A stretch of DNA of 64,000 nucleotides from an uncultured bacterium (lineage in GTDB: Bacteria; CSSED10-310; CAZUFC01): assembly GCA_964619725.1 (NCBI GenBank), contig CAZUFC010000034.1, positions 1 to 64,000 of the forward strand, read 5' to 3'. This document shows, in pieces, positions 51-55,975 of this stretch. Each line of letters begins with the position of its first letter. The first letter of the stretch is position 1. The translations under genes and the position numbers were made by a program. The notes under the pieces are model-generated. The model was not told the origin of the DNA. It ran no database searches and worked only from the letters and a program-made list of their open reading frames with translations.

Positions 51-1256
51 ATGAAATATATAATAAGCTTGTCTGCCGTATTGGCTTCGATGCTGATTCT
101 TGCCGGGTTCGAGTATGCTCAGGCTGATTCCTGGTATCACTGGGCATGGGCGAGACGCGTTTCGGTCACCATAGATTCCAGGATGATCGACGACGACCTT
201 TCCGGTTTTCCTGTTCTTGTGACGGAAGAAGGAATGAGTGAATCATTATTTCAATATGCTCTGGAGGATGGAAGCGACATAGCAGCGACCGCCGGCGACG
301 GTCAGACGAAACTGAAGCGGGAACTGGTGGAATTCGACAGGGAAAATCAGTCGATGGAATTATATGTGAAGGTTCCTCTGATATCAACTTCGGAAGATAC
401 GGTCTTCTATCTTTATTACGATAATCCGCAGGCGTCCGAAACCAATGATGCCGAAGTTTGGGACGAAAATTATTCGGCAGTATATCACATGAACGACGGG
501 GAGGACCGTTTTATTGTTGAAGATAGTACGCCCAACGGTTTTGACGGAACGAAAGTGAATATTCATGATCCGGACCCTGTTTATGAGGTCAAACCCAGCA
601 TTGAGATAGAGGGAAAAATTGGAAAAGCGCAGGATTTCGATCATTCCATCATCGATTGCGGCGTCCACCCGGAATTCAACCTGGGCAGGTATTTCACTCT
701 GGAAGCCTGGGGGGTTCCCGACACCGACGACCAGTATAACGGGGCTTTGATTGCTCACGACATGATGGATACGGGACGCCAGTACGCCCTGATCCAGATG
801 GACGGCGATCCCCCTCGCTACACCCGGCTTCAGGTCAATAAAACCGGCGACTACCGGGTGGGAACTCAGTATCCTGACGTCAATCTATGGAATCACATGG
901 TCGGCCGGTATAATCATAACCTTTCAAAATCACTTTTCTTAAACGGCCTAAAAGAAACGAACGAAGGAAACGGCGACCTGAACGATGCCCCGAATTCCAC
1001 CCTGATCATCGGAACCCACCATCTGATGAACTGGTCTTATCATCCCGGTTTTCGTGGAGCCATCGACGAGGTCCGCATATCGAACCTCGCACGTTCGGAT
1101 GCCTGGATTCTCGCAGGCTACCGTAATCAATCCGATCCCGCCGCTTTTTACCGAACGGAAGATGAGCTATCATCAATTCCCGTATTCAACTGCTTCGGCC
1201 TTTTAATCCTGACCGGAATCATCGGCGCATTGATTGTTAAAGGACGACAGAGTTAA
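51..1256 (+). CDS. Secreted DUF2341 + LamG/ConA-like domain protein with C-terminal IP-anchor (IPTL-CTERM-like)
   Basis: ORF track 27..1256; ATG at 51 precedes a signal-like segment (MKYIISLSAVLASMLILAGFEYAQA). DUF2341-type motifs FPVLV, DGSDI, YLYYDNP; LamG end GAIDEVRISNLARS; tail IPVFNCFGLLILTGIIGALIVKGRQS. Confidence 0.88.
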   Translation: MKYIISLSAVLASMLILAGFEYAQADSWYHWAWARRVSVTIDSRMIDDDLSGFPVLVTEEGMSESLFQYALEDGSDIAATAGDGQTKLKRELVEFDRENQSMELYVKVPLISTSEDTVFYLYYDNPQASETNDAEVWDENYSAVYHMNDGEDRFIVEDSTPNGFDGTKVNIHDPDPVYEVKPSIEIEGKIGKAQDFDHSIIDCGVHPEFNLGRYFTLEAWGVPDTDDQYNGALIAHDMMDTGRQYALIQMDGDPPRYTRLQVNKTGDYRVGTQYPDVNLWNHMVGRYNHNLSKSLFLNGLKETNEGNGDLNDAPNSTLIIGTHHLMNWSYHPGFRGAIDEVRISNLARSDAWILAGYRNQSDPAAFYRTEDELSSIPVFNCFGLLILTGIIGALIVKGRQS

Positions 1257-1452
1257 ATACTTCTTTTGTTTTGAACCCCTGTTCCGGCATCAGCAAACTC
1301 ATGACTTCATTTTTCCTTTTTTCCTTTAGTTTTTCCGACTCTGATCGCACAGTTTTCTGCCGATCTATTTAAAGGCGAAAAAATCGAATTGCTGTCAGAA
1401 TGAGACGATTTAGTTTTTATCGACAAGAAAAAAATTTCAAAAACCATTAATC

Positions 1453-1506
1453 AGAGTCTGTCCGCAAACTCGTTCAACGCATGAAAGATAAGCCCGGACA
1501 GGCGCT
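1453..1506. repeat. Small inverted-repeat element, related to the CTGTCC...GGACAG family
   Basis: AGAGTCTGTCCG (1453-1464) ... CGGACAGGCGCT (1495-1506), an imperfect IR. The right arm CCGGACAGGCGCT also occurs at ~50744-50756. Confidence 0.45.
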
Positions 1507-1550
1507 CCGAGTTTCTGATTTTCATTTGTGCAGCAAATCGAATATGGGTC

Positions 1551-1579
1551 TTGACAATACGGGGATGAAATAATATAAA
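1551..1579 (+). promoter_or_regulatory. Sigma70-type promoter of the giant gene
   Basis: TTGACA (1551-1556), 17-bp spacer, TATAAA (1574-1579). RBS-like CAGGAGGGG at 1729-1737 before ATG 1745. Confidence 0.65.
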
Positions 1580-1744
1580 AGGAAAGAATCGGTTTAACCA
1601 TAAGCTGGATTTTGTTTTGACGTCCTATTTGTTTTTCTTTTGAAGAAGAATTCAGCGCCGGGAAATTTAATTTTTTTTTGAGGATTTTGAAATCAAATTC
1701 ATGAAATTTTCAAAGATTTTAAAACTTTCAGGAGGGGTGTGCTC

Positions 1745-4700
1745 ATGAGGAGCATTTTTTCGTCTTTTCGGGTGTTTTTCCTTTTTTCTGTGATAGTTGC
1801 CATGATTTTTGCAGAGGTCATAGCGGGAGCTGCCTGGTATGGCGGCGGCTGGACCAAGCGTCAGTCGATAACGATAGATCATACGAAGGTTGATTCTGAT
1901 CTGAATGATTTTCCTGTATTGCTGACGGGGGCGAATGTTGATTCAACGCTGTTTGCAGGCGCTAAAAGCGACGGATCAGACATAGTTTTGACGGCTGACG
2001 ATGAGGTAACTCGGCTAAAGCGGGAGTTAGTGAGTTACGACGGTACGGCTGAGAGCATGGAGTTGTATGTAAGGGTTCCCCTGTTGTCGTCGAGTGTGGA
2101 CACGGTGATATACATTTATTACAGGAATTATTCGGCGAATGAGGCGAACGATCCTGACACCTGGGACGGTAATTATGTTTCTGTTTATCATATGTATGAT
2201 GGTCCTTCCAACACGATAACAGACAGTACGGTTAATGGATTTGACGGAACGAAGGGAGCAACCCTGAGCGTCGAGATAGACGGCAAAATAGGCGAGGCTC
2301 AAGACTTCGATCATTCGTGGATAGACTGCGGCGTTCATTCAGAGTTTAATTTACGTCAGTATTTCACGGTTGAATGCTGGGGATATCCTGACGCGAATCA
2401 ATATAACGGAGCGTTGGTAGCGCATGATATGAATTCGACGGGTCGTCAGTGGGATTTGATACAGATGGGTGGAAGCGGGACGTGTTACACGACGCTTCAG
2501 GTAAGGAAGAACAACAGCGATCAAAGGATTCACGGCGGTTATCCGACGATGAACGCCTGGAATCACATAGTCGCTGTATACAATTACACAACGGAGAAGG
2601 CGATATATTTAAACGGCGTGAAGTCATCGAATGCGGGTAACGGCGATCTTGACGATGCGCCTAATACGACCTTGCTGATCGGGACTCATTATGAGTATAC
2701 CTGGGGTCATCATCCCGGTTTTCTGGGAGGCATCGACGAATTAAGGATATCGAACGTTTCCCGGAGCGATGCATGGGTACTGGCGAGTTATCGGAACCAG
2801 GACGATCCGGCGGCATTTTCCTATGCAGGATCGGAGGAATCGGGTTGTGACGGAGATCAGGACGGTTATAGGAATCCTGATACTGATCCGTTGGATTGTC
2901 CGGGATTCCCGACAGAGCTTGACTGTGACGATTCTGATCCTAACACTTATCCGGGGGCGCCGGAGATATGCGATTACAAGGACAATCAGTGCGAGGGTGA
3001 TGCCGGATACGGTCAGGTGGATGAGGGAGCGGACCCGTTGGATAATGACGGGATATGTCCTGACGGCGATTTAAGCGGAACAGCGGGTGATGCGCCTTGT
3101 ACAGGAGGAGCGACGACTGATTGCGACGACAACTGCCCTGATGATGCGAATGCCGATCAGGCGGACGAGGACAGCGATGGAGTAGGAACGGTCTGTGATA
3201 ATTGTCCGGGGGATTACAATCCAGACCAGGCGGATTCTGACGGCGACGGTATTGGCGATTCCTGTGATTCCGACATCGACGATGACGGTATTTTAAACGA
3301 CGACGACAATTGTCCTGAGGTTTACAATCCGGACCAGGCGGATTCCGAGGAGGGGACTCCGAGCGGGATGGTCGGATATTGGACCTTTGACGACGGAGCG
3401 GGTTCAGAGGCATCGGATTATATGAATCAGCATCCCGGTTTGATACACGGAGCGACCTGGACGACGGGCAAGCTGGACGGAGCGTTAAGTTTTGACGGGA
3501 TAGACGATTACATTGATGTAGGAGATTTGGGGATAGAGGGAAATGACGCCCGCTCGATAGAATGTTGGTTTTATCCTTATGTGGATGAGACGCAAATGAG
3601 TTATTGGGAAGGACTGGCGACCATAGGCACGGACGACGGTCCTCAGCTTCATTCTTACGTTCTGTTGGTCAACAACGTAGATTCGCCGTGCGGCAGTCCC
3701 TATGTTCATACCATCGGCGGACATTATTATCTGTCCAATACTTGCGGGAATACGAAGGTAAGCGAACTGGGAATAAATCAATGGCATCACGCGGTACTGA
3801 CGCATAACGGCAGCCATCAGGAACTCTATATTAACGGGCAACTCGATGACTCCTCGGATTTAACTCTTGAAACTGATGCCGGCATAACGGTAATCGGCAA
3901 ACGGGCTATAGGAAACGGGGCATTTTTTGAAGGAAAAATCGATGAGGTTGCCGTATATAATCGAGCCTTGTCAGCATCTGAGATTGCTGATCATTACAAC
4001 AACGGATCAGGCAAGAAGTATGTTATAGAGGAAGGCGACGGAGTAGGCGACGTATGCGATAATTGTCCTGATGATTTCAATCCGGATCAGTCTGACGTGG
4101 ACGGCGACGGCATAGGCGACATGTGCGATGCCGATTATCATACGCCGACGCCTGTTCCGACGCCCTTGCCGCCGACTCCGACCATGCTCCCGACGGTAAT
4201 GTCGGAATGGAGCGAAGATACGACTGTCAATCTTAGCGTAGCTGATGTTTCAGATTATAAAAGCGGTCATCGCATCATAAACGACGGGACAGACGGATAC
4301 ATCGTCGTATGGACTAGCGATCTGGTGTATGCTCAGCGTTTCAGCGATACGGGCGTTAAAATGTGGGGACTTGACGGAGCCCTGGTGAGCACGAATGCAT
4401 CAAGCAACGGCTCTGCGCGAATATGCACCGACGGTTCCGGCGGCGCTTTGGTGTTCTGGAAGGATTCCAGAAACGGCAACGAAATATGGGGACAGCGTAT
4501 AAGCGGCTCCGGGCAGCGGCTATGGGACGACGAAGGCCTTCAAATATCACCTTCGGGCATCGATGCCGGTTGTGTTTTTGTTGTTTCAGATGATCAGGGA
4601 GGAGCATTCATAGCCTGGTATTACAACGGCGCCTACTGTCAACGCGTCGATTCGTCGGGAACGGTTTTATGGACGACTCAACTCGATCGTGAAAGCAATT

Positions 4701-7700
4701 CTCCCTGGGGAGTGAAACTCGAAAAGGACGGTCAGGGCGGCATTATATTAACCTGGTGCGCGCAGGTTTACGACGACGATGATATTTACGTTCAACGGGT
4801 GAACAGCGACGGGGAGAGACTCTGGGGACTTTACGGAACCTGCATTTGCAGTGCCAATGATACTCAATATTGTCCCAGAATACTGGCGGACGGTTCAGGA
4901 GGGGGATTGTTCCTGTGGATCGACGCTAGAGGAGGCATTGACCGTCTTTATATGCAGAAAGTCACATCCGGAGGTGTGGCCGATTGGAATGAAGATGGGA
5001 TATGCGTGTTTTACGGAGATAGCGACAGCTACGGACATGCTTTCGTTTCGGATGGAGCCGGCGGAGCTATCGTCACCTGGTTGTGCAATAATGACTCCAA
5101 CATGTATGCCTCCAGAATAGATGCTTCAGGCAATTCCGTATGGGGAGGCTATACCGCGTTGACCGACCATGGTCAGGTGAATGATGTATCGGATTCGCCT
5201 TACCAGACGGTCAGCGACGGAAGCGACGGCGCCATAGCCTTCTTCTCCATATATAACCAGACTGATTCACGCTACGAGATTCATGCTCAGAGGATTAAAC
5301 GCAACGGCGTTTTACCGTGGGGCATCAACGGAGTAGTCTTATGCGATAATGACACAGGGAATCGCAGTTGCGCCCGAGCTGCACCTTGTGAAGGCAATGA
5401 GGGCGGAGGTTTGTCATGCTGGCGCGACTACAGAAACGGAACAGGCGATCTTTTCGTTATGGGCATAGACATAAACGGTATAGCAGGGAATCCTTGCACG
5501 GCCATTGGGACGCCGACGCCTGCTTACAGCGCCACGCCAGAAGCGCCCACGCCTACTGTTGCACCGACTTCGACGACGAGCTGGAGTCTTATGGCGACGG
5601 AGGGATTGCGCGTATCAGAAAGTCAGACTAACCAGGACAGTCACAGGATCATAGCAGACGGTTACGGCGGATATATTGTCGTATGGTCGCATGATGAAGG
5701 ACAGGGCAAATTAGCTGACGTATGGGCTCAGAAATTCGATGAAAACGGGGCCAGGCTGTGGGGCGCCGAAGGGGTAAAAATATGCGCCAGAAACGGGGCC
5801 CAGGAATATCCCCGTTTGTGTTCGGACGGAGCTGGCGGAGCGTTTGTATTCTGGAAGGATGCCTGGAATTCGAATACCATATACGGTCAAAGGATAGGCG
5901 CTGACGGCATCACGCTATGGCAGGAAAACGGGATTCAATATGCAGCAACGGCAGCGGGAGCTTCCTGCCCGTTTGCTGCTTCTGACGACCAGGGCGGCGC
6001 TTACGTAATCTGGGATTCCAATACGGGAATCCATTGTCAAAGAGTCGATGCGAATGGAGTTCCCTATTGGGCGGAACCGCTGTTGCTGGCGGCGAACGGA
6101 ATGGGACCCAAAATCGCCGGCGACGGACAGGGCGGCGCGTTAGCTGTCTGGAACGAGGCGCGTGGAACAACGGGTGAAGATGTATATGTTCAGAGGCTGG
6201 CGCCCGACGGGACCAAGTTGTGGGGTGAAAATGATCTCTGCATATGTCAGAAAGCCAATAATCAGAACTGCGGCCGCGTCATCGGGGGCTCGGACGGTTC
6301 CGGCTTGTTTTTATGGGTGGATCAAACCAACAGCGAAGTTTATATGCAGAAGGTTTCAGCGGCCGGCGCAGCAGAATGGACTGCAGACGGCATTGAAGTC
6401 AGCGCGGGTCAATGCAACCAGGGGCATGCTTTCGTATCCGACGATAACGGCGGAGCGATTATTACTTATATAAAATCTCAAGAAAACAATTTATATGCGA
6501 AGCGGATCGATTCCACGGGTACGGAGGTTTGGGCGTCTGAAACCCAGTTGACGGATCACGGCGGCGTATATTTCATTTCTTATTCGCCCCATCAGACCGT
6601 TCAGGACGGACTGGGCGGAGCCATAACGTTTTTCACTTATGATAATTCTGGAGAATCCCGGTATGAAGTCGTCGCCCAGAGGGTTTCCGGCGACGGTTCT
6701 CTACCCTGGGGAATAAACGGAGCAGTATTAAATTATGCGGCCACGGGGACGCGGGAATGCGTCCGCGGCGTTTCGTGCAGCGCCGGCGGCGGAGGAGCGC
6801 TGGCTTGCTGGCCGGATACTCGAAACGGGACGAAGGACCTCTATGTAATGGGCATAGACGTTGACGGCTTATTAGGATACCCCTGTGCGCCTTTAGGTAC
6901 GCCGACGCCTGCGACGCCTTCGCCGACTCCGACGCCGACGATTCCATCAACCTGGAGCGACGATCCGTCGGTCAATCTGAGAGTCAGCAAAAATCAAATT
7001 CGACAGGATTCGAGTCTTCGGATTATTTCGGATGATCAGGGAGGATATGTGGTATCCTGGCTGTACGCAGGAGATGTCTATCCTCAAGGATTGTACGCAC
7101 AGCGATTTAATTCCGCGGGTAATCGCATGTGGGGGCCCGACGGAACGGCGATATGCACCGATACCGTGAAGACCTGGGGATCGCGCATGTGCAGCGACGG
7201 AACGGGAAGTATCTTTTTCTTCTGGACCGACGAACGCAATCCCAACGCCGAGGTATGGGGTCAGAAAGTCGATTCTGACGGAAACCTTTTATGGCCTGCA
7301 GGAGGAAAAAGAATATCGCCGGCCTGGTTGGACGCCAACTGTCCTTTCGCTGTTCCTGACGGAGAGGGCGGAGCCTTCATCGTATGGCAGGGCGACGGAG
7401 ATTTTTGTACCAGGATCAACGCTAATGGTGAATCGATGTGGAATGCACCAGTTCAACTAGGAAGCGCCAATTGGGGAAGTCCGAAAATCGCACTGGACGG
7501 AACCGGCGGAGTAATCGTTGCCTGGTATCAGTATGATTCATCGACTTCGAACGATATATACGCACAACGTCTTACTTCCGGCGGCGCTGAATTATGGGGA
7601 GCCGGTGGAATCTGCATATGCAACGGCAGTAATAATCAGGGGTGTCCGCGATTGACGTCGGATGGAGCCGGCGGCGGATTCTTCATATGGCGCGATCAGC

Positions 7701-10700
7701 GATATGGCTCGTATTACGCCGTCTTCATGCAGAGAGTATTGTCGGACGGAACCGTTGCCTTAAGAGGAGACGGAATAAGGGTTTCTCCTGATTACGTACA
7801 AAATTCCGGTCATTCGGTTACGACAGACGGAGCCGGCGGGGCTGTAATACTCTACTGCGGCAATGATTCCAATTTTTATGCACGTCGTTTTGATCATGAC
7901 TGCACAGACATTTGGGGCGGACCGGTTACTCTGACGGACCACGGCAATATCCAGGAAGTCGCCTACTCCCCTTATCAGGCCGTATCGGACAACAACGGGG
8001 GCGTCATCACGGTTTTCACGGCGTTAAACAGCGTGGAATCCAGATCGGAAGTCACTGCGCAAAGGATAACGTTAAATGGTAATCTTCCGTGGGGTATGAA
8101 CGGACTGACTCTCAGTCATTATTATGGCGGATGTCCCCGTGTCGCCGGTTGCCTGGAAGATACGGGAGGAGCTTTAGCATGCTGGTCGGATCAGAGGGAC
8201 GGTTCAGCTTCATTGTATGTAATGGGAGTAAACATAAACGGCGAATTGGGAGCGCCTTGTTGCTTGTTGCCTACGCCGGGACCTTCCACGCCCACGCCGA
8301 TGCCGACTGTCACCGCTACTCCCGAAGCGACTGCGGCATGGAGCGACGATCCTGCCGTGAATTTAAGAGTGTCTGAAACTCAAACGGCTCAGGACAGTCA
8401 TAGAATAATTGTCGACGGTTACGGTGGATATTTCGTAGTATGGGAAAATTCTCAGAACATATACATTCAGCATTTCGATCAGGACGGCAACCGTTTATGG
8501 GGACCGGAAGGACTGCTGATTTGTTGCGATTCCAATTCGCAGGAGAATCCGAGAATCTGTTCGGATGGCGCAGGCGGCGTTTTCTGTTACTGGACGGATT
8601 CCCGTACTGTCGGGACCTCTTCTTATGCCGTTTGGGGGCAGCATATCGGATGTGACGGAAACCTGTTATGGCGTGAAAACGGTATTAGAATATCACAGGA
8701 TGACGTAAATGCCGGTTGCTCCTTCTGCGTTCCCGATGATCAGGGAGGTTCTTACGTCATCTGGCAGTATGGCGGAGAAGGTTCTTATTGTCAGAGGATC
8801 GACCGTGAAGGGGAATGGATGTGGGCGCAACCTGTAAGCCTGGCCTTAGCCGGATGGGGAAACAAGATAGAGCAGGACGGTCAAGGCGGCGTACTGTTAT
8901 GTTGGTGCGACAACCGTGGAGAGACAGGAGACGACATTTACGTTCAAAGATTGGATGCTTCAGGCAGCAAGCTTTGGGGAACCCAAGATTTATGCGTCTG
9001 TCAGGCAACGGATTCACAGGAATGTCCCCGGATACTGGCCGACGGTTCGGGCGGAGCGTTCATACTTTGGTCCGACTACAGGGACGGAATGAACAAGCAG
9101 CTATATATGCAAAAAGTGAACTCGGCCGGTTTAACGGAATGGACCGAAGACGGGATTTGTCTGTATAGCGGTTCAACGGACGGACGCTGTCACAGTATAG
9201 TTCCCGACGGCAGCGGCGGGTTCCTGGCAGCCTGGAAGGACCTGACGGATTACAACAACATGTACGCCCTTCGTATAGACGCAACCGGTAATGATGTGTG
9301 GGGAGCGCCTCTGCAGTTGACCGATCACGGTGAGGCATTCCACCTGGCGTCCTCTCCCTATCAGATGGTTCTGGACAATGCCGGCGGAGCCGTGTTGTTT
9401 TTTACTCGAAACAATGCGACCGAAGGATATGAAGAAATAGACGCGCAAAGGATTATGCCCGACGGTTCTTTACCCTGGGGAGTAAATGGATTGACGCTGG
9501 CTTACAATGCCGCCGGCAATCGCAGATGCGCCCGGGGAGTTTCCTGTTCGACAGGCGGCGGAGGCGCCGTAGCCTGTTGGTCAGACACACGAGAAGGACA
9601 AAAAGTCCTTTATCTCATGGGCGTAGATTCTAACGGCGATATCGGCGATCCTTGTTATGCCGAAGGAACGCCCACACCGGTCGCTCCCTCGCCTACTCCG
9701 ACGCCTGTTCCGCCGTCGGAATGGAGCAGCGATCCGACGGAGAATCTTCGCGTAAGTAAAGTTCAGATAAATCAGCCCAACAGTTTCAAAATATTTTCGG
9801 ACGACGGAGGTTATTTCATATTGTGGGCTCATCGTGATTGTTCGAATGAATACAGCGTTCATATACAGAAATTTAATGCTTCGGGCGCACGGATGTGGGG
9901 AAATGACGGAATATGTCTCGATCAAGGAGACGTCGAAGATTGGGGAATGCGCATGTGCACGGACGCCTCAGGCGGCGCCGTAGCGTTCTGGACAGACTCC
10001 AGCGGTTCGCAATACGCTATAAAAGCTCAAAGAATAAGCAGCGACGGGAACATGTTATGGAATGAAGAAGGCGTATCTGTTTCGCCTTTCTGGCTTTCGG
10101 CCCGATGTCCCTGGGCGGCATCAGACGGTCAGGGCGGCGCATATATTTGCTGGCAAGGCGACGGCGTTTACTGTCAAAGAGTGGACTCGAACGGCAATAT
10201 AGCCTGGAACTATCCCAAACAGCTTTCAACCGACGCTTACGGCGGCATAAAACCTGCTCCTGACGGACAGGGCAACGTCTTGCTTGCGTGGTATTTCAAT
10301 GACGATACAACCGGTTATGATATCTATGTTCAGAAATTAGATCAGAACGGCACGGAATTATGGGGTTCAGGAGGTATCTGCATCGCTCAGGCTTCTAATG
10401 CCCAGCAATGTCCCCGCCTTGCAGCCGACGGTTCTGGGGGCGGATTCTTTATCTGGGAAGATCAGAGGTCAGGGTCTGCCAGTCTTTATATTCAGCATGT
10501 ACAGAGCGATGGAACCGTGTCGGGGCTTCAAAATGGAATTAATCTATCGTCAGGGACAGCAATCCAACAGGGTTATTCGGTAGTTTCCGACGGCACGGGA
10601 GGCGCTGTTGCGTGCTGGTGGGCTAATGACGGGAATATATATGCCAGGCGTGTCGATTCATATTTGTCTGATGTCTGGGGAACTTCCATACAGTTGACGA

Positions 10701-38456: not shown

Positions 38457-38458
38457 CG

Positions 38459-42360: not shown

Positions 42361-42375
42361 GGACGCCTCCTTTGC

Positions 42376-42427: not shown

Positions 42428-42477
42428 ACGCTGCCGAAATACCGGAAAATTGAAGGGAAACCAGGTAATAATATTTT

Positions 42478-42674
42478 GGGACTGATCAAACAGGGGTTAA
42501 ATTTCTTGCAAAACTTTCGATGGTTTGTTTCAGTAATCGGGGTCGGTATCGGGATCGGGGTCGGGGTAGGGATCGGGGTCGGGATCATGGTCGGGATCGC
42601 AATAGCAATCGAAACAAAATGATGAGATATTATTTCGAATTGCAACCTCAAAAGACGCATTTTTGATCAATGCC
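42478..42674 (+). mobile_element. Hexamer-core dispersed element, copy with 13 hexamers
   Basis: GGGACTGATCAAA...TGTTTCAGTA-[13 x RTCGGN-like]-ACAAAATGATG...CAAAAGACGCATTTTTGATCAATGCC. Confidence 0.85.
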
Positions 42675-42811
42675 ATTTTTTTATTCATTTTCCTGCTGGT
42701 CAAAATTGACTATTACATTGGGAAGTAATATCATCATAACAGGACAGAATTTGACAGAACGGAACGACGTAGAAATAATTTCTGGATTTAATTGCAGGAG
42801 GAAAAACAGTC

Positions 42812-47329: not shown

Positions 47330-47380
47330 TGGGAGATTCTATCGAATTGTAACCTCGAAAGAGGTATTTTTGATCAATGC
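47323..47380 (+). mobile_element. Right-end fragment of the hexamer-core element
   Basis: AAAATGATGGGAGATTCTATCGAATTGTAACCTCGAAAGAGGTATTTTTGATCAATGC matches the 3' part of the full copies. Confidence 0.75.
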
Positions 47381-47451
47381 TTTTTTTCTGTTCGGGTGCG
47401 ATTTCCGATAATCTGGAATTCATAGATACCGGCAAATCCTTATCAATTATT

Positions 47452-48000
47452 TCAATGTCGATAGGCCTTCTCACCCGCCCTGACAGGAGCATCCAGCCTG
47501 TTTTCGTCCGGCGGAATCGGACAGGAATAGTTCTGACCGTAAGCGCAGAACGGATTGTAAGCCTTATTAAAATCAACGATCCATAACTCGCCGTCATCGC
47601 TCCTGTCCAATCTTTCGTCCAGGTCCAGGTATCTGCCTCCTTCGTAAGTTTCCTTGCCGGAAGTCGCATCCTTGAACGGTATGAACAGCCCCTGCTCTTC
47701 CTCATCGTCTTTGTAGGCCTGCAGCACGCAATCCCTGCCGTTCACCTCGAACCTGAATTCGCCCCATCGAATCATCCGGCGAATATCACCGGTCGTATCC
47801 TCTACATCAACTACTCTCTTCTTCTCGTGTTCATGCAACGGCAGCGACATCATTAAATCTTCTTTCAAGTCGTAATATTCCAGTCCGTCAAAAGATTCCT
47901 GCTCTTCAGGCGGTATCGGGGACCGGTGATCCTCGGCAAAAAAACGATCTTTCGTCCGCCTCATGTTCTCCATATATTTTCTCCATTGTTTCTTTCGCAT
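47452..48000 (-). CDS. DUF1684 family protein
   Basis: PFKDATSGKETYEGGRYL and DFNKAYNPFCAY...SCPIPPDENRL...AGEK motifs. Confidence 0.9.
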   Translation of the reverse strand: MRKKQWRKYMENMRRTKDRFFAEDHRSPIPPEEQESFDGLEYYDLKEDLMMSLPLHEHEKKRVVDVEDTTGDIRRMIRWGEFRFEVNGRDCVLQAYKDDEEEQGLFIPFKDATSGKETYEGGRYLDLDERLDRSDDGELWIVDFNKAYNPFCAYGQNYSCPIPPDENRLDAPVRAGEKAYRH

Positions 48001-48207
48001 GATAAAATTTCTCCCCTTTTTCGTGTTAGTCGCCTTGAATGTAAAATTTAATGATGCTTCTTCCGCCTACTAAAACCAGGCCGGAATAAATCCTTTATCA
48101 AACTCAACCGCAGCTTGAGCCGGACGGCGAAAACGCTTAAACAAAAGCTGATGGGGCTTCTTCCCGCCGGTTATCCTTGCCCGCCTTTATCTCGACGCCT
48201 ACCCCCC

Positions 48208-49011
48208 TTACATTTTTTCCATAGGCGATGCTTTCTTTTCGTATCCTACGGGCAGCTCAAACAGAGAATCGTCAAAATCCTTCTCGCTGAATTCTTTCAA
48301 TTCCGTCCTGTATTGCATCTCTCCATCGCTGTAATAAATATGGCGCACAGGAAAACCGGAGAATCCCTCTTCTTCGCCGGCTTCCACTTTGAAAGCACGG
48401 AAAAATGAGGGCATATCTTTGGAAAACTGCTCGAAAAATTCGCTCCATCCCTTCATCACTTGAAGTTCATCCCGATCAATGTCTAATTCATCCATCGCCG
48501 CGGTCCATATTTCCTCTACTTTCTCTCCTTCCGTATACCCCGCGTATTTGTCTGTCATCCATCGGTTCACTTTGACTCCTTCAGCCTCTTTTTTGTATTC
48601 GACCTTTTCGGTCATCCCTGGCATACGGTTTTTCATCATGTTTTCCATCATTTGACGTTGTTCGGCCGGCACGTTCTTCATTTGCTTCTCTATTCTATCC
48701 ATTGCATCAGCAATTTTTTTCTGAACTTTCTCCAGGTCCGCTTTGGTTATCTCTGTATATGTTTTATCACCATGGTCTATCATCCAGAAAAGTTCCTTGT
48801 CGTCCCGAAAGATTAAAACGGTCGATTCCCCGTTTTCCGATTCGACTCTCATCTTCTCCTTTTCAATATATGCTTTAGCCGTCGTAGTCTCCTGCCTGCC
48901 GATCTGCGATTCGGTTTCATTCACGAACAGGTAACCGCCCTGAGCGGATACGATGGAAAATAGACCCGTCAGAATGATGACCATAAAAAATCTTGCCGTG
49001 TTTCTGTACAT
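48208..49011 (-). CDS. Secreted DUF4412-like protein
   Basis: ATG 49011 with AAGGAGGA RBS; the track start 49053 lies inside the repeat element. Signal peptide, KMRVE...DKTYTEI, GFPVR, FELPVGYEK. Confidence 0.78.
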   Translation of the reverse strand: MYRNTARFFMVIILTGLFSIVSAQGGYLFVNETESQIGRQETTTAKAYIEKEKMRVESENGESTVLIFRDDKELFWMIDHGDKTYTEITKADLEKVQKKIADAMDRIEKQMKNVPAEQRQMMENMMKNRMPGMTEKVEYKKEAEGVKVNRWMTDKYAGYTEGEKVEEIWTAAMDELDIDRDELQVMKGWSEFFEQFSKDMPSFFRAFKVEAGEEEGFSGFPVRHIYYSDGEMQYRTELKEFSEKDFDDSLFELPVGYEKKASPMEKM

Positions 49012-49042
49012 TTTTATCCTCCTTATAATTATTAATATTTTC

Positions 49043-49249
49043 GAACTGATCAAACCGGGTTACACTTCTTTCAAAACTTTTGACGGTTTGATTCAATAAT
49101 CGGGGTCGCAATCAGTATCGGTATCGGGGTCAGGGTCGCAATCGGGGTCGCAATCGTTATCTAAATCGGGATCGTAATCGGAATCGAAACAAAAGGATGG
49201 GAGATTTTGTCGAATTGTAACTTCAAAAGACGCATTTATGATTAATGCC
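49043..49249 (+). mobile_element. Hexamer-core dispersed element, copy with 15 hexamers
   Basis: GAACTGATCAAACCGGGTTACAC...-[15 hexamers ATCGGG/GTCGCA/ATCGGT...ATCGAA]-ACAAAAGGATG...CAAAAGACGCATTTATGATTAATGCC. Confidence 0.85.
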
Positions 49250-49331
49250 GATATTCTTTAAGCCTTCTCTGCTGGAATGTCCCTTACTCAAGCATTTTGA
49301 ATATAACACAAATCCGGTTTACGATCAAATG

Positions 49332-49793
49332 CTAAACGTTCAAACGCCAGATAGCCCAGTTCAGGACTGATGCGAAAGAGACCCACAACAGGTAAGGCAG
49401 CAGTAAAACGCCGGCAAGCGGTCTGATTTTCCAGAAGGATATCATGGTGATCAGGATCATGATCCAGAGCAGCGATACTTCAAAGAAGGCGAGATCGGGG
49501 CGTTGCAGTCCGAAGAAAAGGTATGACCAGAGGGCGTTCAAGGCCAACTGTATCAGGAAAACCGCCGTGGGAAAAGTCATACGGTAATCTCCGGGCGTTT
49601 TCCATATCAACCAGGCGGCCGTGCCCATCATGATATAAAGCGCTGTCCAAACTGGTCCGAAAACCCATCCCGGCGGATTGAAAACAGGCTTTTGAAGCGC
49701 CCGGTACCATTCTCCAGGCATAAATTTCGAACCGATAAAACCGGCGGAAAGCGATACGAGTATCCAAAGGATGAGACGGATTATTTCTTTCAT
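49332..49793 (-). CDS. tspO: TspO/MBR tryptophan-rich sensory protein
   Basis: WYRALQKPVFNPPGWVFGPVWTALY, QLALNALWSYLFFG and LLPYLLWVSFA signature motifs. Confidence 0.95.
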   Translation of the reverse strand: MKEIIRLILWILVSLSAGFIGSKFMPGEWYRALQKPVFNPPGWVFGPVWTALYIMMGTAAWLIWKTPGDYRMTFPTAVFLIQLALNALWSYLFFGLQRPDLAFFEVSLLWIMILITMISFWKIRPLAGVLLLPYLLWVSFASVLNWAIWRLNV

Positions 49794-49877
49794 GAAATGT
49801 CCTTTCAGGCGGCCCTGTTCAATAACCGGTCAAACGCGGAAACAGAATCCGCCTTGAAGGTCAGAGCCCTTCCTAAT

Positions 49878-50519
49878 TTATTGATCGTCTTTGTTCTCTT
49901 GCATCTCCTTGTGTATTTCCCTGAATATCCTTTTGATTCTATCCGTAATTTCTTCACCATTCTTTTTTTCTTCTTCATCCATAAATTCAACCTCCAGCCT
50001 GGACTCAAACTTGTCCATAGCTTTTTCCAGGAAGCCTATTTTCTGTTCCAGGACTTTTCTTTCTCCCGTTTCCCAGTATTCTCCCTCATCGGTTACTTCC
50101 AGATTGGATATGTAGCGTTTTTTCAGATACCGGAGCAATTCGATCAGCGTAATGTGCGTTTCTATCGGAGCGAATTGAGTTTTCACCGAATTGTATTGTT
50201 TTCCTGCTTCGATTTTCCCTTCAAGCATCAGGATCGTTCCCATTATGGAAGTTAAATTGCCCTCGGAATCGAAGAAAAATTCTGCGGTTTCACAATGCTC
50301 GTGAGGCTGAATACTGATACCTTTGAGTCCCAGATGACCTTCAATATTGGCTTTACCGACTTCATGCACCAATTGTGCGTCAGAAGGCTCACTCCAATCC
50401 TCATCAAGCATTTGCGCTTCCCAGCCCAGTCTGCGGGCGAATTCAGCCAGTTCATTCCGTAAAACAGACTCATCGGATATGTGGTCCAGCTTACCTCTGT
50501 AATGAATCGTTACTCCCAT
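49878..50519 (-). CDS. Hypothetical protein
   Basis: Open frame. Probable start MGVTIHYRGKL at 50519 with GAGGT upstream (track start 50561). KTQFAP...H and DEGEYWET motifs; no function recognised. Confidence 0.75.
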   Translation of the reverse strand: MGVTIHYRGKLDHISDESVLRNELAEFARRLGWEAQMLDEDWSEPSDAQLVHEVGKANIEGHLGLKGISIQPHEHCETAEFFFDSEGNLTSIMGTILMLEGKIEAGKQYNSVKTQFAPIETHITLIELLRYLKKRYISNLEVTDEGEYWETGERKVLEQKIGFLEKAMDKFESRLEVEFMDEEEKKNGEEITDRIKRIFREIHKEMQENKDDQ

Positions 50520-50759
50520 TTTTTCAACCTCGTTTTCGTTTTTAACCTTGACAGCATCCAAGGATGTTTCATTGATGATACCTGATTTTCCGGATGAGTC
50601 AATTCGAGTTTTTGACGATTACGGATATGGTTAACGGATTACGTTTCATCTCTGCATCGCCCGCTTTATCAAAAAAAGCAATTGATTTCAATCTATTAGG
50701 TTGATCTTATCAGGAGTTCTAAATATCAATTCAAAATCTAATGCCGGACAGGCGCTATC

Positions 50760-50816
50760 TAGTGACTGTCCTGCATTAAATTTTGAATCGACAATCGAGT
50801 TTATGGACAGTCACTA
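50760..50816. repeat. 57-bp inverted-repeat element, copy 2
   Basis: Perfect 12-bp IR TAGTGACTGTCC ... GGACAGTCACTA, abutting another arm GGACAGGCGCTA just upstream. Confidence 0.8.
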
Positions 50817-50914
50817 TCTAAAACTTCAGCAAACTCCATTGCAGATTTCCTATTGTTTTCAGTTATAAGATCATTTATAATTTCTTCAACAATTTTGATC
50901 GTAGGAGGCTGCAG

Positions 50915-52240
50915 ATGATTTCGCTGAAGAGGATAAGTCATATCATCGTTTCATATTGTTTGCTCGCAATCATTTCTGCTCATTCAGACGTTCAGGCCGG
51001 AGGATACGCTGTTCAGGAGATCGGTTCTCAACGAACCAGCATGAAAGCCACGGTAGCCCGCGGAACCGACCTTACGACCATGTTTTCGAATCCCGGAGGA
51101 TTGGCGCGTTTAAAAGGCACGCGATTTTACGGATTCCTGATGCCCGCTCAAATACTGGCGGAATTCAGCCTGCAGGATGAGGACGGCGAATATTCGGAAT
51201 GGATCGAACCGACAGCGGCTTATGGATTCGTTCCTTTTCTGGGCGCGAGCAGCGATTTCGGTTTTAAAAAGTGGGTGTTCGGTCTTTCATGGTATTTTCC
51301 CAACCTATCTGCTTCCTCGCTTCCTGAAGATTCTCCGTTGCGGTACCATGCCATAGAAGCTTATTTTATAAACTGGTTTTTAACCGGTTCCGCAGCGTAT
51401 GAATTACATCCTAAAGTATCGCTGGGCGCCGGAGCGAGTCATATCTATGCGCTTCAGTATTATAAAACCATGCTCGATCTTTCCACGCTGGATATACCTC
51501 AGGCGCCTATTCCCCTGGCAGGCGATGCATTAATGGAAGCCTGGCCGGAGGGCGACGGTTTCGTATGGAACGCCGGCATTATTTTAGGACCCTGGAAAGG
51601 CGTAAAATTCGGACTGACCTATACCAGTTGCGAATGGATAGAAATGGAAGGCGACCTGGAAGCTGAAGGCGAACTTTACGGAATGATACCCGGGGAAGTA
51701 AAAGGCCGGTTTTATCAGGATACTCCGATTCCAGATTACATCAGGGCAGGCATCAATTATCAGGTAAATCATTCCTGGCAGGCCGGATTTGATTGGACAC
51801 TCTGGCATTACAACATATATCAGAAAAGCGAGCGAAAAATTAACGGCGCCCTCTCCGTACCGGGCATGCTGGAAGAAGACCTGGACCTTGATTTTACCAT
51901 AGAGAGCGACAGGTCCTACGGCAATTCATATAATCTGGCCGCCGGCATCGAGTATATCCAGCGGAAACGGAATAACTGGACATGGACACTGGGATTCGAA
52001 TACGATAAATCGCCCATTCCCGACAGGACATTCAGCGTGGAGAATCCCACCTCCGATTTTATCGCCGCAGGCCTGGGACTTCATTTGCCTATATCCAAAA
52101 AATGGACCATGGGCTCGACCCTAGGCATACAAAGACAAAAACAGCGCGACATCAGAAACAGCGAAACAGTTCCACCAACCAATGTAAAAACAAAGGCGAT
52201 AATGCTCAAAGCAGCATTGTCTTTCAGTTATAGGCGATAA
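50915..52240 (+). CDS. OmpP1/FadL/TodX family outer-membrane transporter
   Basis: GGAGG RBS, signal peptide, N-terminal GGYAVQE...NPGGLA hatch motif, YDKSPIP near the C-terminus, terminal amphipathic strand LSFSYRR. Confidence 0.85.
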   Translation: MISLKRISHIIVSYCLLAIISAHSDVQAGGYAVQEIGSQRTSMKATVARGTDLTTMFSNPGGLARLKGTRFYGFLMPAQILAEFSLQDEDGEYSEWIEPTAAYGFVPFLGASSDFGFKKWVFGLSWYFPNLSASSLPEDSPLRYHAIEAYFINWFLTGSAAYELHPKVSLGAGASHIYALQYYKTMLDLSTLDIPQAPIPLAGDALMEAWPEGDGFVWNAGIILGPWKGVKFGLTYTSCEWIEMEGDLEAEGELYGMIPGEVKGRFYQDTPIPDYIRAGINYQVNHSWQAGFDWTLWHYNIYQKSERKINGALSVPGMLEEDLDLDFTIESDRSYGNSYNLAAGIEYIQRKRNNWTWTLGFEYDKSPIPDRTFSVENPTSDFIAAGLGLHLPISKKWTMGSTLGIQRQKQRDIRNSETVPPTNVKTKAIMLKAALSFSYRR

Positions 52241-52461
52241 AATTATGGGCCTTTTTCCGGAGCGCTGAAGGTTATCTTTGAAACCGTTCTTCAACTGACA
52301 AAATGACCATCGCTTAGTTTATTAATCCCCTGGATCGCGCACGTTTTTCAATCTGAACATCAATATATGGGGGCGGCGTAACCCGGCATCTCTCGTTCGA
52401 TCATACGCCAGTTTCAAATTTCAGAGCCTCATGGGATATTCTGAACTTAAATGAAGCGCCT

Positions 52462-52480
52462 TCTGATTTGACAAATCAGA
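52462..52480 (+). promoter_or_regulatory. Perfect palindrome overlapping a TTGACA -35 hexamer
   Basis: TCTGATTTG-A-CAAATCAGA, ~75 bp upstream of ATG 52556. Confidence 0.45.
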
Positions 52481-52555
52481 TTTTGTACGTTAGAAGGGTA
52501 AGGAATCCAATTTGAAGTTTTTAAATGAGGGAATTCTTGTCATGGAGGTAATTTT

Positions 52556-55500
52556 ATGAGTCACGGGAAGTTTTTTTGTTTTTATGTTTTTTTTGCGGGT
52601 TTGACGATATTAATCTCGTCGTCTTTTTCAGCGACAGAGATCACTGAAGGCGATATTACGACCGATACGGAGTGGGACCTGGCGGGTCATCCTTACTGGG
52701 TAAAAACTAATGTTGAAATAAAAGGGGGAGCGACTTTAACGATAGAAGCTGGAGTCGTAGTCAAGATGGCATATACTAACGCTTTGTGTATAAAGGTTGT
52801 GAACGGTTCGCTCGAGCTGTTGGGAACGGAGACTGATCCTGTTTACTTCACGTCTGAGCGAGATGACACATTGCCTTTACCGTACGGTGAGGATACGAAT
52901 GGTGACGGAGAAGCGACTGCTCCTGCGGCCGGAGACTGGGGTTATTTACAGTATAGCGCTCAATCAGGCAGCAGCATTCTGTCGAACGTTGAATTCCGTT
53001 ATGGCGGCAATGGACCGTCTGCTGTGGATTATCTGATCTTCGTTCATAATGCTGACGTGAACATCAGCGACATAAAAATAGTCGATGCTTTTGAACTGGC
53101 GATTTATTACAGTTCCCCTTCAACAGCCATGTCGCCTTCGATAACAGGCGTAGAGATATTAAATTGCGAGACAGGCATCGACTTCTATCCTTCCTCTGTA
53201 ATTGACTCTCCCCTCATCTCCGATAACACGATAACCGCTACCTCATGCGGAATATCGTTCAGGTCTTCCGACTCGTCGCTTAACGGACTCATAAGCGGCA
53301 ATGTAATAACCAGTCCGTCCGGCACGGGAACCGGCATTATTATTCGATATAGCGATTCATCGACCGCCGTAACGGATAATACGATCACCGACATGGTTAA
53401 CGGATTACATTTTCTTTCTGCTTCGCCCACGGTATCCGGAAATACAATCAGCAACTTGACCGAATATCCATTGATGTATCAAAACTCCTGTTCACCGGTC
53501 TACAGCGGGAATTCCTTCACGAATATCGGAATGCCGGCCATAGCTGTTTGGGGAGATATAGAGGAATCGTCAACCTGGATCGACGTTCAGGGTCTCGGCT
53601 ATCCTTATCATATAATAGAAACCCTGGGGATCGATAATGATACTACGCTGAACATCGATCCCGGAATAGCCGTCAAGTTCAAGCCTGTTTCCAATAACGG
53701 CATGGAAATCCGTGGAGTATTATCGAGCCAGCCGACAGGAGAACCGGTCATTTTTACATCAATGAAAGATGATACCGCCGGAGGCGACTCAAACGGCGAC
53801 GGTTCGGCCACAGTTCCTTCTCCCGGCGACTGGGGCTATCTATGGTATCAGTCTCAAGCTTCAGGCATACTCCACAATGCGGAATTGAGATATGGAGGCA
53901 ATGGTTATGCTTCCGTCGACTACGTCATCTGGGTTGGCGGATCAGACATGGACATCAGCGACATTACAATAACCGACTGTTTTTCCAGCGGCATTTTATA
54001 TCAATCGTCGAGTTATGCCGTCACGACCCCATCCATCACGAATGTAGTCATACCCTCCTGCGAAACAGGCATACGATTTAGTCACGGCAGTCAGGATTTT
54101 TCATCGGAAATATCTGATAATCAAATAAACGCATCGGTTTGCGGCATTCTCTTTAACGGTTCGGATGCAGCGTTTCCGACCTTTACAATAAACGCTAATG
54201 TAATTGAAAGCTCGCAGGGTTCAGGAACCGGGATTCATGTCATAGACTGCGATGCAACATCCTCTGTATCGAACAATACGATATCAAACATGACGAACGG
54301 GTTGCATTTTGAAGATGCATCACCGACCGTCACCGGCAATTCAGTTACCGGTGCGGCTGAATACCCGTTAATTCAGCAAGGCAGCAGTTTCCCGGTTTAT
54401 AGCGGAAATACTTTCAATAATATCGGACTTGAAGCGATTGCCGTCTGGGGAGTAATTCAGACGTCAGGAACCTGGAATGATGTTCAAAACCTGGGCTATC
54501 CCTATCATGTTGAAGAAACCGTGGAGATTGATGATGGAGCGACGCTGAGCATCGACCCCGGTATGGTCGTCAAGTTTCAAACGACCGGATATCCGTGCTT
54601 CGATATCAGGGGCATGTTGTCTCTTCCCTCGTCGGGCAGCAGGGTCGTTTTCACCTCAATGAAGGACGATACGGCAGGCGGCGACTCAAACGGCGACGGC
54701 TCTGCTTCGGTTCCTTCTTCGGGAGACTGGGGATACTTTCATTACTATCCTCAAGCCGTCGGAAACATAGTTCAAAATGCTGAATTTCGTTATGGCGGCA
54801 ACGGAAAATATTCGGTCGACTATGTCATTTGGGTAGCAAAGGCGAGTACGGAAATCCGCCATAATGCATTTTTCAACGCGTATGACACCGGCATTTATTA
54901 TCAGGCATCCACTACCGCTGACAGCACTGCGCTGATTCACCATAACACGATAATGAATGCGGATACCGGCATCCGGTTTATGGGAAGCGCGGATTACAAT
55001 TCAACGGCTCAAATCACCTACAACTACATTGACGCAGGCGAATCTTCCGTCGCAATTGAATTGCGAAAAGCCTGCGCCGCTTCAGATATCGGGAACAACA
55101 CCATCGTCAACAACTTTATAGGCGTTGATGCTGTCGATCCCCAGGGGGCTTTCACTGTCAGGGAAAACAATATTGTGGGTAATTCCGAATACGGCGTCCG
55201 ATGCGACGGTCCTGTATGCATCCTGGCAGACGACAACTGGTGGGGCCATGAGACTGGGCCCCTGGATGAAGAGGCGGGAGCGGGAGTATGCGATAATCTT
55301 CACGCCGGCGGAGGCGATGAAATAAGCGAATATGTCGATTACGGCGACTGGTCTAATAACTGGATTCCCAATTATCTGCTGAACTGTTCCGAGGCGATTC
55401 AGGTGACCTGCGGCAGCACATTGAATTATCAGACAACGGCCGACATGCAATCGAACATTGACTATTACGGATGCGATCCCTCTTTGTATATGGGCGGAAA

Positions 55501-55975
55501 TGAAAAAGTTTATTCAACGACGACCGAATCTTCCGGCAGCCTGCAAGTCGTTCTATGGCCGGATTCGGAAACCGAACCTTACGTTTTTATTCTGGGTTCA
55601 TGCAATGAAAACGCCTGCCTGGCTTCAGACGAACGATGCGCCGTTTTGCCGGACGTACCTCCGGGACAGTATTACATCGTAATAGACAGCCCTTCCGGTC
55701 ATGCTGATTTCGATATCGGAATCTACTGCGGATTACCGACTTTTACGCCGACTCCAGCCGTCACGCAAACCCAGTCGCCGACAGCTTCTCCCACAGAAGG
55801 CACAACAACGCCGACCGTTCCGATTCTGACGCCTACCGCAACAGAATCGCCGACCGCCGCCGTTGTGCCCGCAGCTTCTTGCGGAACAGCGATTTTACTC
55901 CTGGTTCTGCTGAGCGCTTTGATATCTTATCGAAAAATGGGAACTGATCAAAACGGGGTCTCACTTCTTCCATAA
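52556..55975 (+). CDS. Secreted right-handed parallel beta-helix repeat protein with Cys-rich PPC-like domain and VP-anchor
   Basis: 1139 aa, GGAGG RBS, signal peptide. Three FTSxxDD...GD(S/T)NGDG..P..GDWG repeats, NxI beta-helix ladders, DNWWG cap, P/T linker, tail VPAASCGTAILLLVLLSALISYRK. Confidence 0.88.
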   Translation: MSHGKFFCFYVFFAGLTILISSSFSATEITEGDITTDTEWDLAGHPYWVKTNVEIKGGATLTIEAGVVVKMAYTNALCIKVVNGSLELLGTETDPVYFTSERDDTLPLPYGEDTNGDGEATAPAAGDWGYLQYSAQSGSSILSNVEFRYGGNGPSAVDYLIFVHNADVNISDIKIVDAFELAIYYSSPSTAMSPSITGVEILNCETGIDFYPSSVIDSPLISDNTITATSCGISFRSSDSSLNGLISGNVITSPSGTGTGIIIRYSDSSTAVTDNTITDMVNGLHFLSASPTVSGNTISNLTEYPLMYQNSCSPVYSGNSFTNIGMPAIAVWGDIEESSTWIDVQGLGYPYHIIETLGIDNDTTLNIDPGIAVKFKPVSNNGMEIRGVLSSQPTGEPVIFTSMKDDTAGGDSNGDGSATVPSPGDWGYLWYQSQASGILHNAELRYGGNGYASVDYVIWVGGSDMDISDITITDCFSSGILYQSSSYAVTTPSITNVVIPSCETGIRFSHGSQDFSSEISDNQINASVCGILFNGSDAAFPTFTINANVIESSQGSGTGIHVIDCDATSSVSNNTISNMTNGLHFEDASPTVTGNSVTGAAEYPLIQQGSSFPVYSGNTFNNIGLEAIAVWGVIQTSGTWNDVQNLGYPYHVEETVEIDDGATLSIDPGMVVKFQTTGYPCFDIRGMLSLPSSGSRVVFTSMKDDTAGGDSNGDGSASVPSSGDWGYFHYYPQAVGNIVQNAEFRYGGNGKYSVDYVIWVAKASTEIRHNAFFNAYDTGIYYQASTTADSTALIHHNTIMNADTGIRFMGSADYNSTAQITYNYIDAGESSVAIELRKACAASDIGNNTIVNNFIGVDAVDPQGAFTVRENNIVGNSEYGVRCDGPVCILADDNWWGHETGPLDEEAGAGVCDNLHAGGGDEISEYVDYGDWSNNWIPNYLLNCSEAIQVTCGSTLNYQTTADMQSNIDYYGCDPSLYMGGNEKVYSTTTESSGSLQVVLWPDSETEPYVFILGSCNENACLASDERCAVLPDVPPGQYYIVIDSPSGHADFDIGIYCGLPTFTPTPAVTQTQSPTASPTEGTTTPTVPILTPTATESPTAAVVPAASCGTAILLLVLLSALISYRKMGTDQNGVSLLP

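Follow-up and report, generated by a model that had tools for sequence, protein, structure and literature searches.

A probable exosortase H-type sorting signal on more than 200 secreted proteins of an uncultured CSSED10-310 bacterium

Five secreted proteins encoded on a 64-kb stretch of DNA from an uncultured bacterium of the phylum CSSED10-310 (bases 1-64000 of contig C34 of the genome labelled G000, hereafter the window) differ from one another except at their C-termini, which share a short motif, a hydrophobic helix and clustered basic residues. This arrangement raises the question of what reads such a tail: a dedicated enzyme or none, and, if an enzyme, a new one or a variant of one already catalogued. 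The original prediction, made from the window, proposed a lineage-specific sorting signal with its own transpeptidase, used to display a coat of proline/threonine (P/T)-rich proteins. The five tails are confirmed here as part of a genome-wide surface-sorting signal on more than 200 secreted proteins, and they are quite probably the cognate signal of a divergent exosortase H (XrtH) system.

The tail signal in the window and across the genome

Using the list and translations of open reading frames (ORFs) of the window, the C-terminal ends quoted in the original prediction were matched exactly in all five ORFs, and its description of five different secreted proteins with a common tail was borne out. 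The last part of each protein runs from [IV]P[AV] through a short spacer and an uncharged hydrophobic helix to basic residues, and each begins with a signal-peptide-like segment as judged by eye from the translation (Table 1). Outside the tail the five are mutually unrelated. A P/T stretch lies ahead of the tail in three of them, as had been claimed, being long in the proteins of 1,505 and 1,139 amino acids (aa) and short in the 12,076-aa protein, and the motif is retained without any P/T linker in the 401- and 523-aa proteins. The 12,076-aa protein, a mosaic with matches to DUF2341, Laminin_G_3, FG-GAP, CARDB, CarboxypepD_reg, Wzt_C, A2M and cohesin, is encoded by a single open frame and is the biggest of the cargo set.

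With respect to the genome as a whole, 14,333 six-frame ORFs of at least 90 aa were analyzed, 363 of which have at their C-terminus at least 14 uncharged residues in a row and then K or R. The dipeptide [IV]P lies no more than 14 residues upstream of the helix in 223 of these 363 tails (61%) as compared with 1,252 of 14,793 random 15-residue windows (8.5%), which is the enrichment before C-terminal helices on which the original prediction had staked its proposal. The distance from [IV]P to the end of the helix is set, with a mode of 22 residues, and the motif-anchored consensus reads (T/P)n-P-[IV]-P-A-x4-G, about 14 hydrophobic residues, then R/K, with T and P alternating in the residues that precede the motif. 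Position 0 is I or V and position +1 is P in 100% of tails, with G at +7 in 60%; position +2 is A in 49%, S in 15% and T in 12% (A/S/T together 76%), L at +3 reaches 17%, and W is outside the six commonest residues at +6. The consensus contains neither an invariant Cys nor Gly-Gly. The tripartite C-terminal layout of IPTL-CTERM (motif, helix, basic cluster) is present in the tails; they depart from IPTLxxWG, a motif wording which comes from a database record name, in that the genome-wide consensus lacks T-L at +2/+3 and W at +6, as had been noted for the window. The tail can nevertheless be read as an XrtH-type signal because I/V-P at 0/+1 and G at +7 occur as they do in IPTLxxWG.

The tail census was made on the last 60 residues of each ORF; whole-ORF hmmsearch under-scored very long proteins, and none above 5,000 aa was recovered by it. 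A hidden Markov model (HMM) of the tail scored at least 12 bits on 234 of the 14,333 ORF ends versus 12 of 73,662 internal 60-residue windows and no reversed sequences, and the window's five tails scored 15.9-30.2 bits. An HMM trained on the window's five tails alone, the scan which had originally been suggested, reached the same threshold on 110 of 14,333 ORF ends (the five included, with 107 falling within the set of 234) and on 9 of the 73,662 internal windows. The 234 tailed ORFs sum to 271,940 aa, equivalent to 8.9% of the 9.17-Mb genome, and seven cargo ORFs, counting the 12,076-aa protein, exceed 5,000 aa. In an earlier scoring pass which yielded 194 tailed ORFs, 122 tails were preceded by a 30-residue stretch of at least 50% P/T/S, and a signal-peptide-like N-terminus, as detected by a crude pattern, was present in 148 of the 194 versus 1,480 of the 3,317 remaining ORFs with a length of 300 aa or more.

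Curated sorting-signal models captured little of this set. When the five window proteins and their 40-residue tails were analyzed with NCBIfam no sorting-signal model was reached, the sole match to such models being LPXTG_anchor on one tail at 14.1 bits (cut-off 15.9). IPTL-CTERM (TIGR04174, cut-off 20.5) gave 14 matches at E<=10 among 122 candidates in the genome, two of which were over cut-off (22.2 and 20.8 bits), and across the phylum 5 of 14 genomes had one or two tails over cut-off. On a set of 25 tails no single model covered the whole, midcut_by_XrtH matching five members and IPTL_CTERM one at E<=10. VPxxxP-CTERM (TIGR04143) was rejected, its best tail reaching 14.4 bits against a cut-off of 30, as was PEP-CTERM (TIGR02595, cut-off 16): of its three genome matches at E<=1, the two at 17.4 and 16.7 bits (E 0.12-0.2) were borderline, and the cut-off was exceeded also in 2 of 14 control genomes. 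The expectation that the tails would not score as ordinary IPTL-CTERM or PEP-CTERM was therefore upheld, with two genome tails and none in the window passing the former, although the signal is most likely of the XrtH kind all the same. Intermediate forms were observed, namely a tail reading VPAFSVWG in this genome and, in a relative, IPSLSWWG on the cargo beside the enzyme gene in locus L013.

Candidate enzyme, membrane partner and competing explanations

As stated in the original prediction, there is no sortase or exosortase gene in the window; the genome's only exosortase-family gene over cut-off lies on contig C134 and encodes a protein of 190 aa. This enzyme scored 65.7-67.9 bits on TIGR04178 (cut-off 23) and 35.5-37.5 bits on PF09721 (cut-off 25.7). 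Three more weak matches to TIGR04178, on contigs C25, C63 and C35, fell under the cut-off, and two of these contain stop codons. Residues C96, R137 and H156 of the enzyme, the conserved Cys/Arg/His which we take from work on archaeosortase A to be catalytic, are invariant in 23 aligned homologues. Classical sortase was rejected, with no PF04203 matches in the 90.9% complete genome, as was rhombosortase, for which six rhomboid-like matches all fell below cut-off; sub-threshold rhomboid matches were likewise obtained in the 14 control genomes. The suggested search for exosortase, archaeosortase or rhombosortase homologues thus gave one exosortase-family enzyme, no rhombosortase over cut-off and an archaeosortase B score far from its threshold. 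Indeed the enzyme fell under every named subfamily cut-off in NCBIfam: archaeosortase B (ArtB, TIGR04144) 78.2 bits against 150, XrtH (TIGR04177) 76.4-76.6 bits against 86, and exosortase X 64.4 bits against 170. In public data 44 homologue clusters were found, whose names, where given, are generic exosortase/archaeosortase names or automatic labels (ArtB or 'exosortase H (IPTLxxWG-CTERM-specific)'), and the named records with relatives of the enzyme are metagenome-assembled genomes of candidate division CSSED10-310 and one labelled Schekmanbacteria.

Placement of the enzyme was examined in the phylum and beyond. The phylum comparison comprised 14 species genomes (G000-G013, the relatives being labelled CSSED10-310), in all of which the enzyme was present. 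Their scores on the XrtH model ranged from 63.8 to 91.2 bits, and the two genomes over 86 (G011 and G013) are the most divergent, deeper-branching ones of the phylum. Among 1.84 billion representatives searched with a profile there were 4,266 matches at E<=0.001, and 60 of the best 150, all of 235 aa or less, were taken for a subfamily scan and a tree. Twenty-seven of the 60 passed as XrtH, including those nearest outside the clade (P0045, P0046 and P0048), and none passed as ArtB. In a quick IQ-TREE analysis of 83 rows (the 60 plus 23 clade members) the clade grouped with the XrtH-passing P0046 and P0048 with a Shimodaira-Hasegawa-like approximate likelihood ratio test (SH-aLRT) support of 93; P0045 fell inside the enzyme clade, and the sister group was mostly XrtH-passing (SH-aLRT 98). 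By sequence comparison the enzyme is most likely a drifted relative of catalogued exosortase H.

In 12 of the 13 loci with downstream sequence, the enzyme gene is immediately followed on its 3' side by a gene for a membrane protein of about 200-250 aa; this gene is missing in locus L015, and locus L011 ends at the enzyme gene. This partner has no Pfam family. The possibility that it is a degenerate exosortase paralogue was rejected, hhalign against the enzyme alignment giving a probability of 1%. NF041730, the model for the exosortase H-associated membrane protein, was matched by 5 of 12 partners at E<=1 (best 8.7e-6), and four of the phylum's weak matches to this model lie directly beside the enzyme gene. 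Structural modelling of the enzyme-partner complex gave a score of 0.71 versus 0.00 for the best control, with runs agreeing in at least 66% of contacts and a predicted local distance difference test value for the partner of at least 72. Of 157 solved complexes 116 reach the mark used for this score, as do 2 of 215 mismatched pairs, counts which are rough here as custom alignments were used. The confident interface of the model involves enzyme residues beside C96 and H156 and the region of the partner's invariant N96, P99, A102, Q175 and W186. As a prediction, the model supports binding of the two proteins to each other.

Tails matching the signal were, as with the enzyme, present in all 14 phylum genomes. 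With the 25-tail profile at E<=0.01, G000 had at least 139 matches, with 150 of its 458 candidates scored, eleven other genomes had 7-29 each, G011 (9.2 Mb) had two and G013 (6.1 Mb) had one. The presence of enzyme and tails across the phylum, with G000 far the richest, suggests that the signal is old in the phylum and has been greatly expanded in this lineage. At 9.17 Mb, G000 has roughly double the genome of most relatives (2.6-6.1 Mb, with one at 9.2 Mb), and its tails per megabase are several times higher (234 in the census versus 7-29 profile matches in eleven relatives).

On the mechanism which we propose, cargo would be exported via an N-terminal signal peptide and would be held by its C-terminal helix in the inner membrane, with the basic residues inside. 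The 190-aa enzyme, probably complexed with the membrane protein of the overlapping gene, would recognize P-[IV]-P-A-x4-G at the helix's outer face; this Cys enzyme would then cut at the motif, take off the helix and hand the protein to an acceptor. The outcome would be a surface coat on P/T-rich, possibly glycosylated stalks. A diderm envelope is indicated by the FadL/TodX-type channel encoded in the window, and the sorting enzyme would therefore act at the inner membrane. The phylum has been predicted to be Gram-negative, with which the FadL-type protein agrees (PMC8248873); sorting systems are absent from the text of that paper.

Three other explanations of the tails were weighed. A separate lineage-specific system, having a transpeptidase of its own and no descent from XrtH/IPTL-CTERM, would account for the failure of any curated signal model to cover the tails, for an enzyme under all named subfamily cut-offs and for public names which go no further than the exosortase/archaeosortase family. 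It is nevertheless unlikely, because XrtH is a co-best match and falls 10 bits short of its cut-off, which is passed in two genomes of the phylum, the nearest outside relatives pass as XrtH and are joined to the clade by the tree, an XrtH-type partner gene is conserved, and a few tails pass IPTL-CTERM; moreover, I/V-P and G at +7 are common to the tails and IPTLxxWG, and the L013 cargo by the enzyme of a relative ends in IPSLSWWG. Of the original proposal, the exosortase-type signal, the dedicated enzyme and the many P/T-linked secreted proteins were retained, and its claim to be a separate system gave way to a drifted XrtH.

It could also be argued that the tails are plain membrane anchors which are never cleaved, [IV]P-A...G being merely a helix-capping preference after P/T linkers. 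Cleavage of the tails is itself argued from related families, and as 122 of the 194 tails follow a P/T/S-rich stretch the proline could partly reflect linker composition. Against this, [IV]P stands at a set distance from the helix end with G enriched at +7, the tails of the 401- and 523-aa proteins keep the motif without a P/T linker, and an enzyme with intact Cys/Arg/His is conserved in 14 of 14 genomes; we regard this explanation as quite improbable. Very improbable indeed is cutting of the signal by an unrelated intramembrane protease, either a rhomboid or a CPBP-type enzyme as for MYXO-CTERM, with some other role for the exosortase-family gene. The six rhomboid-like matches in the genome would offer candidates, all of them under the rhombosortase cut-off, and MYXO-CTERM is processed by a non-exosortase protease (PMC11980579); yet the control genomes give sub-threshold rhomboid matches likewise, the signal has no invariant Cys or Gly-Gly, the enzyme gene adjoins a cargo gene, and the signal resembles IPTLxxWG, whose curated partner is XrtH.

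Several points weigh against assignment of the tails to an XrtH system. None of the five window tails matches TIGR04174, and just two tails in the whole genome reach its cut-off. In 12 of the 14 genomes, this one among them, the enzyme scores below the XrtH cut-off. With respect to the partner, the best score in the phylum on NF041730 is 23.3 bits against a cut-off of 35, which no partner reaches, and the partner in this genome gave no match to the model. The tail census is circular in that its model was trained on tails which it counts, and the ORF set is crude, including shadow ORFs and omitting genes cut by contig ends; the 9.17-Mb bin is 90.9% complete with 6.5% contamination. The enzyme tree is quick and midpoint-rooted, with SH-aLRT support alone, and all compared genomes hold both enzyme and tails, such that co-occurrence was seen among enzyme-bearing genomes only. 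We also know of no experiment that demonstrates cleavage by any XrtH.

These points notwithstanding, the system is most likely the known XrtH/IPTL-CTERM system in a drifted variant and not a separate one, with cleavage, anchoring, the acceptor, glycosylation and the final location of the cargo being what we infer from the known families. More speculatively, XrtH and its partner may form an obligate two-subunit enzyme whose motif has been re-tuned from IPTLxxWG to P-[IV]-P-A-x4-G, and one lineage may have expanded its use to more than 230 cargo proteins with lengths of up to 12,076 aa, taking up about 9% of the genome, which build a glycosylated, P/T-stalked coat, with internal signals also being cut such that one chain gives two surface products; we hold this extended account to be possible rather than likely.

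Gene neighbourhoods and internal signals

Coordinates of the window proteins, of the C134 cassette and of the ORFs discussed below are presented in Table 1.

Table 1. Features of the window, the enzyme cassette and ORFs with internal signals. Positions on C34 are those of the window.
Feature	Position	Strand	Remarks
Secreted DUF2341 + Laminin_G_3 protein, 401 aa from ATG at 51	C34:51-1256	+	Tail model 21.1 bits
Sorting tail of 401-aa protein	C34:1176-1253	+	IPVFNCFG, helix, KGR
Giant secreted protein, 12,076 aa	C34:1739-37969	+	Tail model 15.9 bits; 25-tail profile E 2.9e-6
Sorting tail of 12,076-aa protein	C34:37871-37966	+	IPVLGGTG, helix, KKKIK
Secreted protein, 523 aa	C34:38954-40525	-	No Pfam or NCBIfam family; tail model 17.4 bits
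Sorting tail of 523-aa protein	C34:38957-39046	-	VPAAGLGF, helix, RFR
GATase_4 class-II glutamine amidotransferase-like protein, hydrophobic N-terminus	C34:40515-41498	-	11-base same-strand overlap with start of 523-aa cargo gene
PIN-domain protein	C34:41669-42118	-	Upstream of GATase_4 gene
Secreted protein, 1,505 aa, long P/T/S linker	C34:42812-47329	+	No family; tail model 30.2 bits; 25-tail profile E 1.0e-10
Sorting tail of 1,505-aa protein	C34:47237-47326	+	IPAVGSSG, helix, KRE..KRK
FadL/TodX-type outer-membrane channel	C34:50915-52240	+	Pfam Toluene_X 102.7 bits; context, outside sorting system
Secreted right-handed beta-helix / NosD-like protein, 1,139 aa, P/T linker	C34:52556-55975	+	Tail model 25.9 bits
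Sorting tail of 1,139-aa protein	C34:55865-55972	+	VPAASCGT, helix, YRK
FG-GAP repeat protein, 1,635 aa	C34:60564-64000	+	Runs to ~65471 in C34; signal-peptide-like start; no sorting tail
Partner membrane-protein gene	C134:12339-12983	-	Overlaps enzyme gene in G000
Exosortase-family enzyme, 190 aa	C134:12955-13527	-	Outside window
Cargo gene with same tail	C134:13957-16587		Adjoins enzyme gene
ORF with complete internal signal	C203:97-9159	+	Begins 97 bases from contig end
ORF with complete internal signal	C171:6391-15348	-	Begins 97 bases from contig end
ORF with complete internal signal	C64:15893-18937	+	LTD domain before signal; phosphodiesterase + BNR part after
Internal-signal paralogue	C226:1528-1920	+	
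Internal-signal paralogue	C10:17419-18711	-	
Internal-signal paralogue	C155:14892-16145	+	
S41/PDZ C-terminal processing peptidase	L007:7344-9068	-	Convergent, right after partner gene

Within the window the 1,635-aa FG-GAP repeat protein lacks the sorting tail, from which it follows that large secreted proteins here are not all cargo.

The cassette on C134 is flanked by genes for two GT2-type and one GT4-type glycosyltransferases, an LpxL-like acyltransferase and a HEAT-repeat protein, as well as a generic histidine kinase and a sigma-54 response regulator. Identification of the latter two as PrsK and PrsR was rejected, as TIGR02915 gave 420 bits (cut-off 502.6) and was outscored by AtoC, and TIGR02916 gave 86.7 bits (cut-off 300); the pair is generic. 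With these glycosyltransferase genes close by, it is plausible that the P/T linkers are glycosylated. In relatives, a gene for a C-terminal processing peptidase of the S41/PDZ type is convergent and stands right after the partner gene, as checked with Pfam in locus L007 only, with ORFs of similar size in L006, L008, L009, L010, L012, L016 and L017. Two GT4 glycosyltransferase genes lie 2.3-3.5 kb beyond this peptidase in relatives, the Pfam check again covering the L007 copies only. This peptidase and GT4 arrangement is absent beside the G000 cassette.

The midcut-by-XrtH model (NF033207, cut-off 45) gave 41 matches in the genome at E<=1, none over cut-off and the best at 24.2 bits, and in ORFs on C171, C203, C155 and C64 the match continues through a second helix. 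Three ORFs, on C203, C171 and C64, contain a complete sorting signal within the frame, directly after which, uninterrupted by a stop codon, come a second helix resembling a signal peptide and another large secreted portion. Three paralogues, on C226, C10 and C155, have the order signal peptide, about 25 residues, [IV]PA signal and helix, basic loop, second helix and CarboxypepD_reg match. In these the CarboxypepD_reg match begins only at profile position 15-30, as if the domain were split by a membrane hairpin, and the short N-terminal piece may supply the missing strands.

Comparison with known sorting systems

No description of the P-[IV]-P-A-x4-G variant signal was found in a full-text literature search, most subscription journals being outside the reach of that search. 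To our knowledge exosortase H and IPTL-CTERM exist as database models with almost no experimental study, and the one relevant use found in the search concerned an S-layer protein of Methylomirabilis, with a preprint also mentioning exosortase H. An IPTL-CTERM domain is reported for this S-layer protein (PMC8671808), and a surface-coat role for the present cargo would be fitting for that reason. The version of the system found in a whole phylum escapes the curated models, and nearly all of its cargo would be left unlabelled by annotation. With a signal model made for it, about 9% of this genome would be annotated as surface cargo, which would open a first look at the envelope of cells in an uncultured phylum, and the predicted enzyme-partner complex offers a testable reason for XrtH to be always accompanied by a second membrane protein.

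The tripartite, many-to-one architecture was defined for LPXTG, PEP-CTERM and GlyGly-CTERM (PMC3237569). The tripartite layout and the many-to-one logic are shared here with PEP-CTERM and exosortases A/B (XrtA/B) and with PGF-CTERM and archaeosortase A (PMC3237569), as is the superfamily PF09721. In contrast to those enzymes, for which eight predicted transmembrane helices are described there, the enzyme here has 190 aa, and the P-E-P and P-G-F motifs are unlike [IV]P-A. The ArtB/VPXXXP-CTERM system likewise has a short enzyme of the exosortase family, its model is numerically the highest-scoring of NCBIfam (78.2 bits), and V-P starts many of the tails. However, the enzyme is far below the ArtB cut-off of 150, the best tail reaches 14.4 against 30, and none of the 60 nearest representatives reaches the ArtB cut-off.

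The closest likeness is to the XrtH system. In both, the exosortase is short, at about 180-190 aa, its Cys/Arg/His are conserved and a membrane-protein gene comes immediately downstream; both have many cargo proteins per enzyme and a tripartite tail which starts with I/V-P and has G seven residues on. A few tails of the genome pass TIGR04174, and some ORFs have an internal signal and second helix as in the curated midcut-by-XrtH layout, though with scores under the cut-off of that model. The differences lie in an enzyme at 76.6 bits versus 86, a partner which is below cut-off or undetected in this genome, and a motif, P-[IV]-P-A-x4-G, with A/S/T at +2, no W at +6 and usually a long (T/P)n linker before it, such that two tails pass the IPTL-CTERM model versus 234 in the tail census. 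The present system differs also in the scale of its use, with a very large cargo set which occupies 8.9% of the genome and includes proteins of up to 12,076 aa.

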